Shown piece after piece: positions 8,284 to 27,400 of a stretch of 64,000 bases of DNA. Within the stretch, counting starts at the first letter, position 1. The number at the start of each line of letters is the position of its first letter. Under the pieces are notes generated by a model. That model was not told the DNA's origin, did not search any database, and worked only from the letters and a program-made list of their open reading frames with translations. A program made the translations under genes and the position numbers. This DNA is from Lytechinus pictus (taxonomy: Eukaryota): NCBI RefSeq assembly GCF_037042905.1, contig NC_087251.1, positions 19,718,001 through 19,782,000 on the forward strand. Reading direction: 5' to 3'.

Positions 8284-9690
8284 TCAATCAGGAAGTACCA
8301 CCCCAGCCATTCTTTGTTGCCAGTCAACAGCACCCATTGGAGAGACGAAGTATTCTCTGAGATGATCTCTCTGATTTCTGGCATCCACAGTGGCGAGGTT
8401 CCCCCTTGCAGGTGGTTGCGGAACATCTTCCCAGTGAAGTCCATCTCTCCAGGCCCCTGGTGCAAAATTGTGCTCTTCATCTTCGTGGTCCACCGCATTG
8501 GCTGCCAGCGCCACCCTCTTCCTCAGCAGGTTGTGGAGCACCACAGCCGTCTCCACCAAATCTCTGACGTTATCTACCTTCTGTTCCAGTGTTCCCAATA
8601 GGCACCGGAACCTGTTGGCCATGATGCCAAAGGCATTCTCCACCACTCTTCTCCCCCTTGAGATCCTGTAGTTGCAGATCCTCTGTTCATCTGTCATCCC
8701 TCTTCTACTGTATGGCTTCATCATGTAGCTCTTCAGGGCAAAAGCATCGTCACCCAGGATGAAGTAGGGAATATCAGGCTGATTTTCTCCAGGGAGAGGG
8801 CATGGTGGGGGCAGCCCTATGGACCCATCTTCTAGGCATTCGAAGAGCTCAGAGTCTGTGAATATCTGGGAGTCAGACATGTGTCCTTTACCTCCCAGCT
8901 CAATCCAGATGAACTTGTACTCTGCATCTACCAATGCCAGCAGTGGTATAGAAAAGAACCCCTTAAAAGTTGTGGTAGAGACTGCCTGTGTTTGCTGGCT
9001 TCTTAATGTCTATGTGCTTTCCGTCCAAGGCACCAATTGCATGGGGGACATTCCATCTCTGTTCAAACTGCTGGGCAAGGGTGCTCCATGCTTCAGGGTG
9101 GTAGGTATGTTGAAGACCTCATCTTTATACGCCTCTACAATGGCCCTGCACACTCCTGGAATCAACTCTGATATGGTTGAGATACCACATCTGAAACCAT
9201 ATGCCAGTGATCTGTAGTTGTCCCCAGTGGCCAGATGTCTCAAGGTGATTGCCAGTTTGAGGCCAGCTGACAAAGGGTGCCTGTAGTTAGTCTCTTGCTT
9301 CTGGATGACTGGTGCCACTCTCGCAAGGATCTCATCGAACACCTCAGGGGTCACTCTAGTGAAGTTTGTGAAGGCAACAGGGTCCTCTAACCTCAGTTGT
9401 GTGTCCAAGAGGATAGTGAACTGGTCATACTGCTGTCTTCTTTCTTCAGTGAGTCATGGCCTGGTCCAGCAGCACCTGATGAATGGTCTTCCTCCTGCTG
9501 GTAGTTCAATCTCCTCTTGTATTTGCTGTTCTTCCTCTCTCTCCTCTGCCTCGAGGGCAAGGATGTAGTTATATAGCAGGGAGACAAAGGTCATGTCTAC
9601 ATCATAAGATGGTTCATACTCTGGTACATATTGAACTTCTATATCTTGTTCTTCTGCCAAAGATGCAATGATTTCGTGTATCTGCTGCAT
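8284..9690 (-). pseudogene. Harbinger DDE transposase (HARBI1/ALP1 family), ~468 aa, disrupted
   Basis: Joined translation gives WTRP(W>*)L...FTRVTPEVFDEI...KLAITLRHLATG...GALDGKH...NFKGFFSI...LVDAEYKF...GDDAF...[12 protein letters not shown] at 9454-9456; -1 indel in ggg 9096-9098; +1 indel in aaaa 8965-8968. Confidence 0.92.
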
Positions 9691-14575: not shown

Positions 14576-14814
14576 CCATATAATTATGTAATATACACTT
14601 TTCTATCGCGACGCTCATGACATGCATTTATGCGTGCTAGTCACACCAACAAAGGTAAGACAAGACCGATTTAGTCTATTGTACTCTTTTGAAAGGCAAG
14701 CTAGCGAACGCATTGAAGTCGGTATCACTAGTGTGACTAGTGACGGAGGTTGCTTTTTGGTGTCATTTAATCGCAATATCGGGGAATACATTTGGAAGTA
14801 TTTTTCCTATATCT

Positions 14815-14989
14815 GTGTGTATTTGAGTTTTGTCAGACGTGTATCAATCAGATATGATTATTTACGTCTGGGACCGACCTTTAACGTCACCATCCGAAAG
14901 ACGTGACCAGGGCTCGAACCTCGAACCTCTACATCAATTTGTAACTTCCCCGCATAGCTTGGATTACAGGCGCACGCCACAACGCCCAG
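14815..14989 (-). mobile_element. SINE with 7SL-RNA-derived head, copy 1
   Basis: Reverse complement begins ctgggcgttgtggcgtgcgcctgtaatccaagcta, has box B ggttcgagccc and a short (CA) tail. Flanked by tct/tct and absent from the opposite TIR arm (~13485-13496). Confidence 0.9.
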
Positions 14990-15614
14990 TCTAACCAAGT
15001 TAAGACATTAATACTGTCATGAAGCATATCAATATTCTCGTTAATATATTCTCTTTCGTGTTGAATGCTGATATTTTTCATTAATTGTTGATATTAATGA
15101 CAAAACGGAAAGATTTCAATGAACATGCAAATTTTTGCCTAAAAACATGGAAATTTTGGCATAAATTCTAATATTTTTCAAAAAAAATTAACCGGACTGT
15201 TAAAAAAACGATTGTAATCGATTTCTACTGTCTAAATCATTGTGAAATGCGTATTCATTTCATATTTTTCCATTGTTTGTGCAAAAATATGAAAATAATT
15301 GATTTTCATGAAAAATCCAAGATGGCCGACAAAAATGGGGTCCTCTGGGCCTTTCGAACAGGTTATGACCCGGCAGCAACACATTTTCTTGACCACTGAT
15401 ATCATGCCAACCTGTTGGGACCCGATCAGCTGAATAAACTCCTCCAGCCCCCGTACTATTAGGTCTATATGTCTGATTTCGAAAGTGAAAGAGCGCCATC
15501 ACTAGTTACTAATACCCACAACCCCTTTTTCTTTCCATCCTTTTTTTCCCCTCTCCTGTCTTTTCAACCGATCAAGTAGCAGGGGGTAGAATGCCATTTT
15601 ACGGTTAATACTTA

Positions 15615-20556: not shown

Positions 20557-20916
20557 ATGATAATAATGATAATAATAAACAATAGTAACAATAATAATAA
20601 TAGTCCGTTCTTATTAGCGTTTATGTCTCACTTAATTCATTTTCAATGAGCATTTTAATGTTGGAACGTTGGAATTATGGACGGATGAGACGGGGTGGCT
20701 GGGTGGCTATAGACTTCTTTTTTCAGAATGAAAATCATTCGCGTTTCCTCTTTGGGGTACTTTTACAGTTTTCGGGAGATGGGATTTGAGTGGCGTCTAT
20801 ATGAGAAACTTAACATTTGATTCAGAATAAACTAGTTTACATATCATGTATATATAAACTAGACAGAGGTGTACCACAAGGTGTACCACAAAGACCATAA
20901 ACATAGTTTACTTTGA

Positions 20917-21115
20917 GCTGGGCGTTGTGGCGTGCGCCTGTAATCCAAGCTATGTGGGGGAAGTAACACATTTATGCAGAGGTTCGAGGTTCGAGCCCTG
21001 GTCACGTCTTTCGGACGGTGACGTTAAAGGTCGGCCCCAAACGTAAATAATCATATCTGATTGATACACGTCTGACAAAACTCAAATACACACACACACA
21101 CACCCTCTCACACAC
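20917..21115 (+). mobile_element. SINE with 7SL-RNA-derived head, copy 2
   Basis: gctgggcgttgtggcgtgcgcctgtaatccaagcta...ggttcgagccctggtcacgtctttcggacggtgacgttaaagg...ctcaaata(ca)n. Closely similar to copy 1; gag at 20915-20917 and 21116-21118. Confidence 0.9.
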
Positions 21116-22213
21116 GAGTGGTACATGTTTTACCTTTCAAAACGCATAGGAAATATTTGTATGGTAAAAAAGTGGTATATCTAACAACTGAATCTTATGA
21201 GTAGTAATATTATCAAAATCAAAATGTATTCAGTTAATTTGAAAATGCTGTCTACCCGGTATTCGATTCTTGTCCTCTCTGATTCCGTAACCTCAAACAT
21301 GTTAAAGCTCATTTAAAGAAGAGACGAACGAGTTCCCTGAACTTTTCGTCTTTTGAACAGACGGCGGGCAGGTAGGATGGTGTGAGCTTTGATTTATACG
21401 CTACTTCCTCAACAGGTAATTCCACAATTAGAATACGCATTATTACTAAAACAACCGGGACTCTGAAGTTGATATGATAGGTGAGAAATGCTGCATGCGA
21501 CAATAAATCAAATTGTTCGACAGGGTATGATTTATCATTCTAACACCTTATGATTTACAATGTTGACACCTTTACTTGGCATGTTTCAATGCGAGCTTAG
21601 AGAACGGTAATCCCAAGGTTTTCACTCTCGTCAATAGACAAAGACAAATATTACCAAAATTTAAAAACCCATCTTCCTTCTTTCACTTCCACCGATCATC
21701 GTATGTAGGTAAATGAAATATGTAAGCTAGTCGTATCAATTTACAGGCCTCAGGTGTTCAAATTGTAAACTAAGTTTGAATAAGTTGGTCTTAAAAACTT
21801 GGTAAGGACCTTTAAGCAATTCCTTCCATTTTTTAACGTGGCATGTGTTTTGAATTTACCATTCAATCTTTTAAAGTAAATGTAAAATATAATGCATATA
21901 AATTATAAAATGCATGACAAAAACCTTTGCAAAGTGTGCTAGATTTTTTTTTCTAAGTCTTGTATTTTTCTTTTCTATAAAGGAATATCGTATATTAATC
22001 ATCGATTCCATTGCTAATACACACACACACACGCTACTCCACACAGCATATATATATATATATGTATATATACATGTATTAGAATAACAATTTGAGTGTT
22101 ATTTTTCCACGGTACCATATGAAATATTATTTATTCATTCGTTTATTATCTTCAGTTGTATTTTATATGAGGATCATATGATGAATACGAAAATTATCAA
22201 CGAAATGGCCAAT

Positions 22214-22392: not shown

Positions 22393-24255
22393 CATAATGG
22401 TTGTAGGTTTTCATTTGATATGAGAATTTTGAGAACTTGAAAATACGGTTCTGACATAAAAAATACTTTTCAGTGAATAAGCGATGTGGCATTATGTCTT
22501 TTTTCACTATATTATGTAGCTTTCAGCGTTTTTGGTTTTCAGCCCAGTCCAAACCACCCCTCCCCACCCCCTGCCCCCCATAACACTTGGTTAACTTTAA
22601 ATCTGCCAGTACCTATTTCATTATTTGCACCCATTTTTTGTAACCAGTTTAATAATTTGTCCATCTTGAAGCGACCGTAAACTTTTAATTTCCTTCCCCA
22701 TCTTGAAATGCACTTGTCTATTTAAGATCATGATAGGGGATGATTCCTCTAGAAAAGTCGATCACTTGAATTAAAAGGGAGGCATTAATTGAACAAAAGG
22801 AGGCGATGATTAATTAATTAATAAGTTTAGATAGAAGAATGCCCTCATTTAAATATTAAACCATGTTAGAATGAAATTATCCTATTTTAATGTATAACAT
22901 CTGTTTTCACCTATCAAGTATTAAAATCTTGACGACTCATTTTACGATTTCTGGATTACTTCGAAGGCAACATGCACTGCAAGGAACCAAACAATCAAAT
23001 TTCATATTTTAATCTGAATCTGAAAAATGATTTATGTTTTTGCTTTTAATCCATACTTCATGTCAGATGATAATACCATGGTCAAAACATAATTCGGAAA
23101 TAGTGATATTGTCTATCAGTGTCCATGATCGCCTCTTTCAAATATTGCGAATGGTATTAAATACCTTTTTATGCCATGGAGCGGGTCAGTAATATCAGAA
23201 AATTGATGATTATAGAACAAAACATATTGCAAGTATAAAAAAGCCGGAAATGATTTTTTTAATATGAATATCGACAAAACAGACGAGTCTCTTTTTTAGA
23301 TTGTGAGGTGACTTTTTGGTATTGAAATGTGGGTTAAAACACAAACTTTATAAACGATTGTATAATGTTTGAAAATAATAATAATCATGTTAAACCAGGA
23401 ACTCGTTAATTAGCATGCACAACTCGCAGACAACGAAACTGAAATTAAAAGTGCGCCATCTTGTGTTCTTCATGAAACTTAATTATACAGTTCAACTGAG
23501 TCCTCGTAACCTCCCCCCTTCCCAAAAAAATATAAATGGCTTGTTCATCTTTTATGGCCATTTTGTTTCGGTTCGGTGTCTGTTTTATGGTAAAATAAAA
23601 TCGTTTTACGAGCGGATGGGGAGGCTTTGTGGTACAAATATATATGTAAATAACAAAGTCTTAAATACGTTAAAGATAAACTTTATAATCCGAAGTCAGT
23701 AACTTTCTCATTTATTTGGAGAAGAAATTTGTAAAACAGTTTTTTTAAACTGATACGTTAACCTGGAAACTAACGTTTGATCTTCGTCATCTGATATGAC
23801 ATTAATCATTGTCCTCTTGTGTGTATGTTGGTTACTAAGTTTGACCGTACATGCCGTATAGGTGCCTACTCAACCCTTTATATACAATACACTGCACCTG
23901 AAGTATTTGTTTAAAAACAAATGTTTGAAAAAGGTTGGAAACTATTAATCATTTACAGAATTAAAGTCAAAACAACATAATTTGCCTTTTTTAATTAACG
24001 TCTAATGGTTGGAGTCCCCAGGGAACGTTTAAAGCCTGTTTATCATATCTTTGGTAATCGGATTTAAAATGTACTCGAATAACTTAAAATGTACTTTTGT
24101 AATAATCTTAAATTAATTCTGATCTCTCATAATGAGTGTTTTCTCTTTCTCATTCCTAAAATTTTAGGGTAAAGATAATGTAGGATATTTGAATTTCGGA
24201 TACTCTATTTCAGCAATATTTTTCTCTTGAAGAAGTGTTCTTTGAGCGCGCCACA

Positions 24256-24443
24256 CTAGGCGTTGTGATGTGTGTCTGTTATCCAAACTTCTTAGGGAGG
24301 TTCGAAGTTCAAGTCTTCATCACGTCTTTCGAATGGTGACCTTAATTCTGTATGTCTGTATAAGACTCACCCCCCCCCCTTAAAACACACATCCTCGCAC
24401 ACGCACCCTCACACACACACCCTCACACACCATCACACACACA
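24256..24443 (+). mobile_element. SINE with 7SL-RNA-derived head, copy 3 (old, CpG-decayed, internally deleted)
   Basis: ctaggcgttgtgatgtgtgtctgttatccaaact...gaggttcgaagttcaagtc...tcacgtctttcgaatggtgaccttaa followed by a CA-rich tail. Confidence 0.75.
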
Positions 24444-27400
24444 CCCAGTCTTGCAATTTGACAATCGGGGACTCATTTGCTATCACGAAAGTGAGGACGT
24501 GTGTTTACGGTCTCATACACTCCAAATTTTGAATTTGATCCACTAACCGGGCTCATTTTAGGACAGTACATGAGCATAGTTCGCTGACCGGGGACGCTCC
24601 GTACCGTCATACACACCTTAACTTAAGTTTAATTGGCCGAAATGAGTTTTTTTTACGTATCATGAGTTAACTATAATATGAAACGGTTTAAAATGAGAAG
24701 CGGAATGGGTTGGCATGGCTATCTTGATCGGGTTGAAGGACGTCCCGGGTTGATTAGTATAATGTGAAGAAACGTTTCCACAAGTATATAAATACAAACT
24801 CAATCAAAGACGCACACCCCCACCCAGAGACCATTTCAATCTTGAAAGTTGTTTTAAAAGCCCAGATATTTAAGGGACATTTCCATATACTTGAAATAAG
24901 GTTTGAATGTTGTGCTACCTTCCAAAACCTTCGGTTCTTTTGACTCGACATGACGGGAAAAAAATTTCGGTACGGTGTATTAGTTTTATTCGGTTCGGTG
25001 TACTAGTCTATGATCAATCAAATCTCTTCTGCAATCTCTGAAGAAGTTCATCTTGTGATTTGTGTAGTGACATGAGGCAAAGTTATTGAGTCACCGTCAA
25101 TAAAAAGTTCTTGATTGTGAAAGTCTTGTCTGCTGGTTCCACCAATCAATTTGCCTCTAAAAGGTCAATTGACCAAACAAAGAACGAATCATTATTATTA
25201 TTTTTTGTTGGGGGGGGGGGGATGGTTTGCAAATTGTTTATGACTATAACAGCTGTTTTGTGTGTGTTTCTTAAACCTCATGTTAAGGACTCCTTAACAA
25301 TTATATTGAACCAATCATGTTTAAGAAGTTAAAGAACCTGCTTCGTTTTTGGAAGTATTCAAATATCGCCATCATAATTAAAAAAACGAGTAAGATATCA
25401 TTTATCGAATATTCTTAATCATTTCATTTCTTAAATGTTGAACATGGGAAAGAGGGTGTTCCAAAACTGCATTACGTTATTGCATCAAAACATTGCATAA
25501 CAATGGTGATAGCATTATTTCATCATTATTAATAATGCAATGGCAGAAATAATGCTAGGTCGACTTGCCTTGTGCAAATTTACGATTCAGGTTACATTTT
25601 TTATGAAAGATATAATCATATCGAGGCACTTCACATAAACGTATTAGTTAGCCAAATCACTTTAGTGACTAAGGTACTAACTGTTTTACTTTTTATTTGA
25701 AGTTACTTCAAGAACCCACCTATTTTCGTACATTTTGGTAAATTGCATATTTTGGTAACTTACCAAAATATGCATTGTATCAAAATATATCGTAGCACCT
25801 CTCCCTTATCGACTAAGTTGAACAGACCCACCGTTCATTTCATACTTTTTATTAAAAGTATATCTTAAAAGTTATTTCGCATCATGATTTTATTGCACAG
25901 AGCTTATTTTATGATTAAAAAAAACTGTTTTCATGGTTTTAGTTCTTTCATTGAAATCAATTTATGTGCAAACGCAAAGCATTGTGGGAATACTCGAAGG
26001 CGGCGGTGTAAACGTTCCACCACTAGATTATACATGTATGTACTTGAAAATCTTGTGCGAGTCGAAACCTACATTATACGAATCAAACACATATCCCCAT
26101 TAAATAAGTAGGTTCTCAATCGAAGAAATTAATGAATAATTCACGGAAAATCGACAAGCAATTCAAGTGTTACTGCGTTTAAACCACATAACTGCTCATG
26201 GCTCTGACCTAATTCGTATACAGTCCAAAACCGCCATCTCAGCTCATTGGTAGTCTTCAAGAAGCCGGAAATATCCAAATGTGCGGTAGAGCAAAGAAAG
26301 CTATGTTTTCATTGAAGATCAAACGGGTACCTCATGACATGAATTGGTCAAACAAGAGGGAGGGTGATACTTTGAATCAACAGATAGAAAGTTGCACACA
26401 ACACTCCACCAATTTAACACCTTAACCGGAACACCAATATCAACCAATGATAGAACGTCTGGTAGTGTAGACTATTCAAAGATTCGCAGTATTACAGACC
26501 ATAACAATGGGGCTCTTTCGAGCAAAGGAGGGCGTAGGGACCCCACCACTTTAATTAATTGGTTTCAGGTTTCAAGTGAACTTTAAAAACCTGATATGCG
26601 ATACCCTGCGTGAAAATAATATACGTAATGGCCGGCTTCGCCAGGCCTTCCCTAAATTGAAAATTTTTACCCTGCGCGGACGAGAAAATGATATAATATT
26701 TGTCGTGATTTTAGACATGGCTTGGAGAAGAATTAATTCTCGTTACAGCAGGCAGATGAGAAACACACGCACACTCACCCACACACACACACACACCGTA
26801 CAAACCATTCATCTTTTAAATAAAATGCATACATAAGATTTGAGCAAGTTGTACACAATTTCTTAGCCCGCATGAATGGACTGCGGCATATTTAGAGTAT
26901 TCTCTTTTTATTTCATTCTCTGTGCCTCTAACGGCCCGCGTGCACCCGCAGCTATCATGGCTATGGACGATGTTTAGGCAAAAGTTTTGGAATTAATTTT
27001 GTCAAAAAATACTGTGAGCCATGGGTTCAATAACCTAAGCGATAGGGAATCATTCAAGATGGATATTTCACTGATGGAATGATAAACTCCTTAGGCACTG
27101 GGTTGGTTGTGTTGGATTAGAATAGTTCCTGGCAACGTGTGAATTTTTAGCCTACCTATAATACTTGAAATGAATCGGAATGAAATGGAATTTCAAATAT
27201 GCATCAGATAAGCTGTAAGATACACAATGGAAATATTGTGTACAATCTATCTTTATGGAAAATATAATGATTGAATTAAACTTTTTTTCACTGTGTGGAT
27301 AAGTCAGTGGGTAGTATTCTGATGGTTAAGTTAAACCCGGGTTAACTTAGACCACAATTTTATGGGTTGCCAGTTGTCAACCAATTAATCAATTAAAAAA

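Follow-up and report, generated by a model that had tools for sequence, protein, structure and literature searches.

A composite short interspersed element with a head from the 5′ domain of 7SL RNA in the sea urchin Lytechinus pictus

Background

Short interspersed elements (SINEs) headed by a piece of 7SL RNA, the RNA of the signal recognition particle (SRP), include the most successful mobile elements of primates and rodents, and their independent origins are very rare. In 2020, they were stated to be known only from supraprimates and hagfish (PMC7245038); the shrew mole was added to the hosts in 2026 (PMC13023118), and each new case was described as unexpected (PMC7245038, PMC13023118). In this study, a SINE family was analysed that has three copies in a stretch of 64,000 nucleotides (nt) of the L. 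pictus genome (contig NC_087251.1, positions 19,718,001 to 19,782,000), here called the window; the copy at window positions 20917-21115 on the plus strand is the main subject. The element is a 7SL-headed SINE of an invertebrate: of 7SL RNA it has only the 5′ domain, its box B is foreign, its core is Deu-type and its tail is presumably of the stringent type. An earlier note, made from the letters of the window, had described it as an Alu-like family derived from 7SL RNA.

Among the described systems, SINE1-1_EBu (Ebu1-1) of the hagfish Eptatretus burgeri likewise has a 7SL-derived head in a non-mammal (PMC7245038). It is also young, is present in about 10^3 copies (2,363 there), is a composite with other SINE-type parts and has a microsatellite tail. 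A LINE (long interspersed element) of non-L1 type mobilises the hagfish element; for the sea-urchin element we infer the partner type from sequence features. In the hagfish element, a central deletion has left the two ends of 7SL RNA in place, 5′ as well as 3′; its box B is that of 7SL RNA, and its bipartite tail is RTE-derived and contains (AAC)n. The sea-urchin element retains no more than about 47 nt from the 5′ domain; its box B is of tRNA or flank type, its core is Deu-type, and it ends in a stem-loop tail with (CA)n.

In Alu, FLAM, B1 and Tu of Euarchontoglires, as in Urop of the shrew mole, the head likewise comes from the 7SL 5′ end and includes helix 3, helix 4 and the UGUAAU turn; these families derive from 7SL RNA by a central deletion of about 183 nt with the 3′ end kept, and they use L1 via poly(A) (PMC13023118). 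In contrast, no such deletion with a kept 7SL 3′ end was found in the sea-urchin element, which has no poly(A) and carries an unrelated body. B1-dID is a composite SINE of 7SL and tRNA parts. The Tu types and GarnAlu also combine 7SL-derived and tRNA-type parts (PMC7245038), but all these composites are dimers of whole monomers, whereas the sea-urchin element has one promoter unit with box A from 7SL RNA and box B from elsewhere. No description of this SINE was found in the full-text literature, which was searched also with a head-sequence word; the repeat libraries Repbase, Dfam and SINEBase lay outside that search, so the family may already sit in one of them under a tRNA label.

Results and discussion

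Origin of the head from 7SL RNA

The three dispersed copies reported by the earlier note were all present, at coordinates refined by at most a few nt: 14814-14990 (minus strand), 20917-21115 (plus) and approximately 24255-24446 (plus). A 26-nt head word occurred twice without mismatch in the window, against a mean of 0.00 across 100 shuffles. When all 4,227 Rfam families were compared with three different copies of the family, the best match of each was Metazoa_SRP at model positions 1-44, with scores of 23.9, 29.6 and 34.6 bits (E values from 1.3e-4 to 1.2e-7); the lowest score (23.9 bits, E 1.3e-4) belonged to the head at 20917-20964, which comprises helices 2, 3 and 4 of the 5′ domain of the host 7SL RNA. 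The first base of the element is the first base of 7SL RNA. These Rfam matches, together with the host 7SL genes described below, take the place of the 29/36 match to human 7SL RNA given in the earlier note. The only other consistent Rfam match of the head was mir-1268 (22-35 bits), an Alu-derived family. The head did not fit a tRNA better, since no tRNA match was obtained by ARAGORN in the window or by Rfam at E ≤ 10. With introns allowed, ARAGORN returned only spurious split tRNAs, in which T-arm-like modules were used as the tRNA 3′ half.

The assembly searched consists of 811.7 Mb in 368 contigs; contigs are denoted below by C numbers and fetched loci by L numbers. Metazoa_SRP detected seven full-length host 7SL genes scoring 272-283 bits: a cluster of three on C10, another three on C1 and a single one (L037) on C12. 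The remaining 18 scored matches had 32-35 bits, and the three inspected (L038-L040) were all SINE copies. In blastn comparison, the head was identical to L037 over 30-31 nt; against the other six genes, identity over 41 nt was 90-93%. Alignment of the first 48 nt of five representative copies with L037 gave 41-44 matches in 50-52 columns, the 20917-21115 copy having 41 in 52. Over the first 60 nt, 44-50 of 63-69 columns (64-79%) matched L037, and 43-47 of 63-67 matched the other genes. SINEBase defines a SINE as shorter than 1 kb, interspersed and non-tandem, and as sharing 60% identity or more with tRNA, 5S or 7SL RNA across a length of 60 nt or more (PMC3531059). The element reaches that identity to 7SL RNA, with the similarity concentrated in the first 47 nt or so, and it has no tRNA-derived head of the SINE2 kind, only a T-arm/box-B-like module being present.

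The secondary structure agreed with this origin, in line with the earlier report that helix 3 and a UGUNR motif are kept. In the cmscan alignments, helix 2 (ACU/AGU) and helix 4 each had three of three canonical pairs, and helix 3 was as in host 7SL RNA, including the same single mismatch. The linker between helices 3 and 4 (20939-20944) is UGUAAU, the same as in the Rfam consensus and host 7SL RNA; we take it to be the U-turn of the SRP Alu domain, presumably with a role in SRP9/14 binding. The SINE and L037 share a U:A pair in helix 2 where the other six 7SL genes have C:G. This pair, together with the identity to L037, indicates that the head most likely derived from 7SL RNA of the L037 type.

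Beyond the head, blastn found no match to the 7SL 3′ part in the SINE. Local alignment of SINE positions 48-173 with 7SL positions 45-300 gave z values of 0.7-2.4, with 8-62 of 300 shuffles scoring as well. As no significant 7SL similarity exists past position 47 or so, and the single alignment bridging to the 3′ end is poor (see below), only the 5′ domain was kept. Judged by sequence, the retained piece is exactly the 5′ domain of the Alu domain, with the break at the junction of helix 2 and helix 5. The capture of an SRP Alu domain, as first proposed, holds for this 5′ domain of about 47 nt and not for the whole Alu domain.

Anatomy of the element

The SINE is about 173 nt long plus the tail. 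The copy at 20917-21115 has approximately 95% identity to younger copies, and the one at 14814-14990 is full-length and young. The copy at 24255-24446 is old, with a CpG-decayed head, the spacer deleted and the tail partly deleted; alignment with a typical copy gives 105 identical columns out of 135 (78%), and three deletions are present. It was considered as a separate subfamily and rejected, because as a genome query it brought up nothing but regular members of this SINE. A run of ten C residues lies at 24370-24379 in its degraded tail region; C or G runs also flank the copies at L008 and occur 3′ of several 7SL genes.

Within the head of the 20917-21115 copy, an 11-nt stretch of helix 3 (20928-20938) was read as box-A-like, presumably so by analogy with the A box of Alu; it is identical in the host 7SL genes. 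A spacer of about 15 nt without significant 7SL similarity (20965-20978) separates the head from a module resembling a tRNA T-arm (20979-21001), which was recognised by reading and includes the box B GGTTCGAGCCC at 20988-20998. A 7-nt indel in this T-arm-like hairpin separates the subfamilies. The box B, the block around TCTTTCGGA and the (CA)n tail were all present as first described.

The Deu-type core at 21001-21038 contains the blocks GTCACG, TCTTTCGGA, TTAAA and GGTC..CCC. By eye, these roughly 38 nt matched the start of the Deu domain of BivaMD-SINE1, taken from the supplement of PMC4824008, in about 33 of about 45 columns, the shared collinear blocks being GTCACG, TCTTTCGGATGG, TTAAA and GGTC..CCC; the rest of the Deu domain is absent. 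The earlier assignment to Deu- or Meta-type central domains can be narrowed accordingly, the core resembling Deu in this by-eye comparison and not Meta. DeuSINEs, among them SINE2-3_SP of a sea urchin and BivaMD-SINE1 of a bivalve, have tRNA or 5S heads and Deu domains of 70-330 bp (PMC4824008), whereas here the likeness extends over only about 38 nt and the head is of 7SL origin.

At the 3′ end lies a stem-loop (21038-21074) that the reverse transcriptase of a partner LINE presumably recognises. Its fold was computed on a typical copy, in which the last 55 nt fold at −13.0 kcal/mol (z −4.38) and none of 200 shuffles was as stable; in the 20917-21115 copy, the outer stem is weakened by a G-to-A change. 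The stem-loop ends 16 nt ahead of the (CA)n tail, and is followed by the terminal ACAAAACTCAAATA and the (CA)n-rich tail (21075-21115), the length of which varies among copies. A stem-loop followed by a repeat is the layout of SINEs whose LINE partner recognises a stem-loop, as in L2/CR1-type pairs. No TTTT run is present inside the element. A possible left target-site duplication (TSD) of this copy at 20901-20916, with its partner at 21123-21139 (13 of 17 columns), was read by eye with low confidence and was not detected by the TSD scan.

Genome-wide distribution and age

Genome counts were made with 31-mers allowing up to 2 mismatches, and reversed patterns served as controls. Heads numbered 1,271 (651 on the plus and 620 on the minus strand), Deu-type bodies 1,444 and tails 1,331, with 0 matches for each reversed control. 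A CpG-tolerant head pattern with 3 mismatches gave only 1,554 matches, indicating that young copies dominate, with the modules at approximately 1:1:1. The family is clearly not confined to a few copies, as more than 1,200 exist in the genome. The high copy number predicted from the three window copies was borne out at about 10^3; it is not very high, the mean density being about one young copy per 0.6 Mb, and the window, having two young copies in 64 kb, is locally enriched.

Individual copies were studied in a sample of 349,621 bases made up of the window and fetched loci, from which L001 and L041 were dropped because they overlap the window. The sample contained 91 blastn pieces, which gave 69 full-length copies, 60 of them with enough flank and 55 unique by flank. 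These 55 copies differed from the majority sequence by a median of 2 in 173 nt, and 4 were identical to it, in a sample biased to the best query hits. Copies were located on many contigs, with flanks unique from the first base of the head and beyond the (CA)n tail, and the tail length differed from copy to copy. A TSD score of at least 9 was obtained for 11 of the 55 copies and for 0 of 55 mismatched-flank controls. Six of the 11 (L007, L009, L017, L021, L038 and L047) had clean TSDs of 9-14 nt, and the other 5 were artefacts of CA tails within tandem arrays; apparent duplications of only 4-6 nt were noticed by eye in additional copies. The variable TSDs, low divergence and unique flanks characterise a young retroposon, and the family is recently, perhaps currently, active. 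The copies are short (<1 kb) and interspersed, as in the SINEBase definition, with a minority in head-to-tail arrays. No other heads on the same SINE body were found in the approximately 350-kb sample.

The arrays consist of 2-6 units joined via the (CA)n tail and were observed at L013:1336-2344 (C18:3952126-3953134), C19:10865371-10865949, C2:17634175-17634686 and three sites on C8. In the L019 array, a CCTTA junction is repeated between units, which suggests array growth by unit duplication; in the L013 array, the junctions differ. One subfamily copy has an identical 5′ flank at L039, L040 and at least 4 further equally scored places, and so appears to be embedded in a larger repeated unit. 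Flanks are also common to L029/L030, L043/L048, L054/L055 and L059/L060, representing segmental duplications or a larger repeat.

Older SINE copies (77-87% identity to the window copy) were also seen about 40 nt upstream of each of the clustered C10 7SL genes, in the same orientation (L031:1291-1455 and 878-1042; L035:1295-1459; L036:1316-1459). A TCCTTAATTTCGC-like motif, located at about −35 to −15, is conserved in front of all seven 7SL genes, and these copies sit just outside it.

Proposed mobilisation and search for a partner LINE

The element is very probably a composite non-autonomous SINE in which the 7SL 5′-domain head is joined to four further modules (the T-arm-like/box-B module, the short Deu-type core, the 3′ stem-loop and the (CA)n tail), and which would move as follows. 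RNA polymerase III (Pol III) would start at base 1, directed by the box-A-like 7SL stretch and the box B about 60 nt downstream, and the transcript would contain no internal T4 terminator. Among 24 sequencing runs, none recorded as RNA was listed as containing the element, which speaks neither for nor against its transcription. Its 3′ stem-loop and (CA)n would be recognised by the reverse transcriptase of a stringent LINE, and insertion by target-primed reverse transcription would then generate target duplications of variable length. As the layout of the 3′ end suggests, the SINE is probably mobilised by a stem-loop-recognising LINE.

For such a partner, 16 tail-only loci, without a listed head or body hit, were picked by eye from the 54 zero-mismatch tail hits on C1. 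They were rejected as partner LINEs, 10 of the 16 being SINE copies with mutated heads and 6 being 5′-truncated copies without shared upstream sequence. The six truncated copies (L063, L064, L065, L068, L070 and L071, all on C1) end near positions 87-98, inside the Deu-type hairpin, and three of them have a small duplication of the adjoining 8-13 nt at the junction. These junctions give the impression that reverse transcription stopped, or slipped, at a fixed end of the RNA.

Upstream of the truncated copy at L064 lies a LINE (L064:3759-6567, with relatives at L073-L078) having open reading frames (ORFs) that match RVT_1 (8e-37) and RNase_H (4.8e-7); 203 first-look candidates and 41 matches of this type were obtained. 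Of 7 inspected copies of the LINE, 2 have the SINE immediately behind the (AAC)n tail, as a truncated copy in L064 and as a full-length one in L075, which hints at insertion beside A/C-rich microsatellites.

SRP9/14 docking or promoter function of the head

It is possible, by analogy with what is proposed for Alu, that the retained 5′ domain binds SRP9/14 and so would bring the RNA to ribosomes translating the LINE; this is put forward tentatively and may well prove wrong. In its favour are the position of the break at a domain boundary and the retention of all helices and the U-turn. A host SRP14 exon, located at 30.6 bits, speaks for it too, as does the match of the retained piece to the minimal 5′ Alu domain described below. 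Six-frame search for SRP9 (PF05486) gave no match, and the same search was silent in every control genome, so that it allows no conclusion.

Several points weigh against the composite element working as proposed. Every Rfam score of the head is below the 70-bit gathering score, because only 44 of the 299 model positions are present; the host 5′ domain searched alone scored 43.6 bits. The one Rfam alignment bridging to the 7SL 3′ end is forced and has many non-canonical pairs in helix 5, and the 7SL 3′ strand is absent, although it completes the Alu domain in every other 7SL SINE (PMC13023118). Minimum-free-energy folds of the head are no better than those of shuffles (z +0.1 to +1.1). Compared with host 7SL RNA, the helix-4 loop is lengthened by 1-3 nt, and no other part of the head varies as much between subfamilies; this could impair the loop-loop contact of the Alu fold. 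As to the partner, no LINE with the SINE tail was found among the 16 tail-only loci, within a genome-wide search that was incomplete, no SINE-excluding pattern search having been run; a scan of every (CA)4+ repeat in the approximately 350-kb sample likewise gave no LINE tail; and the L064 LINE, ending in its own (AAC)n tail, was rejected.

With the 3′ strand absent and the bridging alignment poor, the head could serve only as a promoter. The 7SL piece would then be a cassette providing box A and a defined start, and mobilisation would proceed via the 3′ stem-loop and tail without SRP9/14; we regard this as a serious alternative, placed just short of an even chance. The missing strand, the lengthened and variable helix-4 loop and the unexceptional folding of the head all fit it, and the significant 3′ stem-loop would by itself explain LINE recognition. 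However, roughly the first 20 nt would suffice for a promoter, yet UGUAAU, helix 4 and a canonical helix 2 are kept to the end of the domain. The retained piece also has the size and position (Rfam positions 1-44) of the minimal 46-nt 5′ Alu domain that was reported, in a preprint, to associate with SRP9/14 and to promote retrotransposition (PMC11760393). That result was obtained with an engineered human Alu construct, L1 and HeLa cells. The same structural inference was drawn for the hagfish family (PMC7245038).

Origin of the chimera

The data fit a fusion of the 7SL 5′ domain with an older Deu SINE of tRNA type, which a switch of template by the reverse transcriptase, for instance, could have produced. 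The hagfish family was concluded to be a chimera with an older tRNA SINE (PMC7245038), a precedent that speaks for fusion and against the following route.

In the alternative, a 7SL gene would have lost positions of about 48-299 and its terminator, joining the 5′ domain to a downstream box-B element. We consider this rather unlikely. It would make the whole Pol III promoter of 7SL-locus origin, and a candidate source for it exists: a conserved element, GGTTCGAGTC(C/T)...GGTGTC, lies 20-45 nt past the T-run in six of the seven host 7SL genes. SINE positions 53-84 matched this element in 26 of 33 columns, in the order expected after the head; the local score gave z values of 3.3-5.1 for four genes, with 2-7 of 1,000 shuffles as good, and the part upstream of box B alone had its score reached by 20 of 5,000 shuffles for L035. 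Much of the score, however, is the box-B consensus, which is common to any type-2 promoter; outside box B the similarity is weak for L031 and L034 (352 and 256 of 5,000 shuffles) and absent for L033 and L032. L037, the 7SL gene closest to the SINE head, has no downstream element, no intermediate forms were found among the 25 scored Rfam matches, and the Deu-type core and tail would still require a second source. Less probable again is a minimal-Alu-domain SINE in which both ideas hold, SRP9/14 docking at the ribosome capturing the protein of a non-L1 LINE and the whole Pol III promoter coming from the 7SL locus by deletion of about 48-299.

The downstream box-B/T-arm-like element itself is present at L031:1806-1845, likewise at L035 and L036, and at L033, L034 and L032; it is absent at the C12 gene L037. 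It is kept despite a diverged flank or a 21-nt insertion, and its fold in L031 has a z value of −2.57. It may be an extragenic box B for TFIIIC, like the downstream box B of yeast SNR6.

That the element is an ordinary tRNA-derived DeuSINE, with a box-A region that became 7SL/Alu-like by convergence of Pol III promoters, is very improbable. A box B with a T-arm-like hairpin is present and the core is Deu-like, and every sea-urchin SINE that PMC4824008 names is placed there in the tRNA-derived class SINE2. Convergence would nevertheless have to account for 30-31 nt of exact 7SL identity that includes host-specific bases and the same 5′ end, in a head for which Metazoa_SRP is the best Rfam match and a tRNA is found neither there at E ≤ 10 nor by ARAGORN. 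A mammalian Alu/B1-type element, present as a contaminant or acquired horizontally, would agree with the mir-1268 match of the head; this reading can practically be dismissed, because helix 3 follows the host 7SL variant and not the metazoan consensus, copies are on many contigs with unique flanks, and body and tail are not Alu-like.

Other features of the window and genome

At 8287-9453 of the window (minus strand), ORFs matched DDE_Tnp_4 (1.2e-24) and, weakly, HTH_Tnp_4; on these domain matches, the region is classed as a putative remnant of a Harbinger/PIF-type transposase. In the genome, two exons matching Pfam Bindin (53.1 and 236.7 bits) were located at C13:14344741-14346105, with no hits in control genomes. 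Bindin is an echinoid sperm protein; the 236.7-bit match supports, at class level, the sea-urchin host that had been guessed from the letters.

Conclusions

This echinoid family would be a further independent origin of 7SL SINEs and the first outside vertebrates. It is the most reduced case, and it is paired with a tail of non-L1 type, which makes it a natural test of whether SRP9/14 docking at the ribosome helps SINEs regardless of their LINE partner. The family seems to be active, and the embryos of sea urchins lend themselves to injection and assay. If SRP9/14 docking is true, echinoderms and vertebrates would have arrived at it separately, and it would be a general route by which SINEs succeed.

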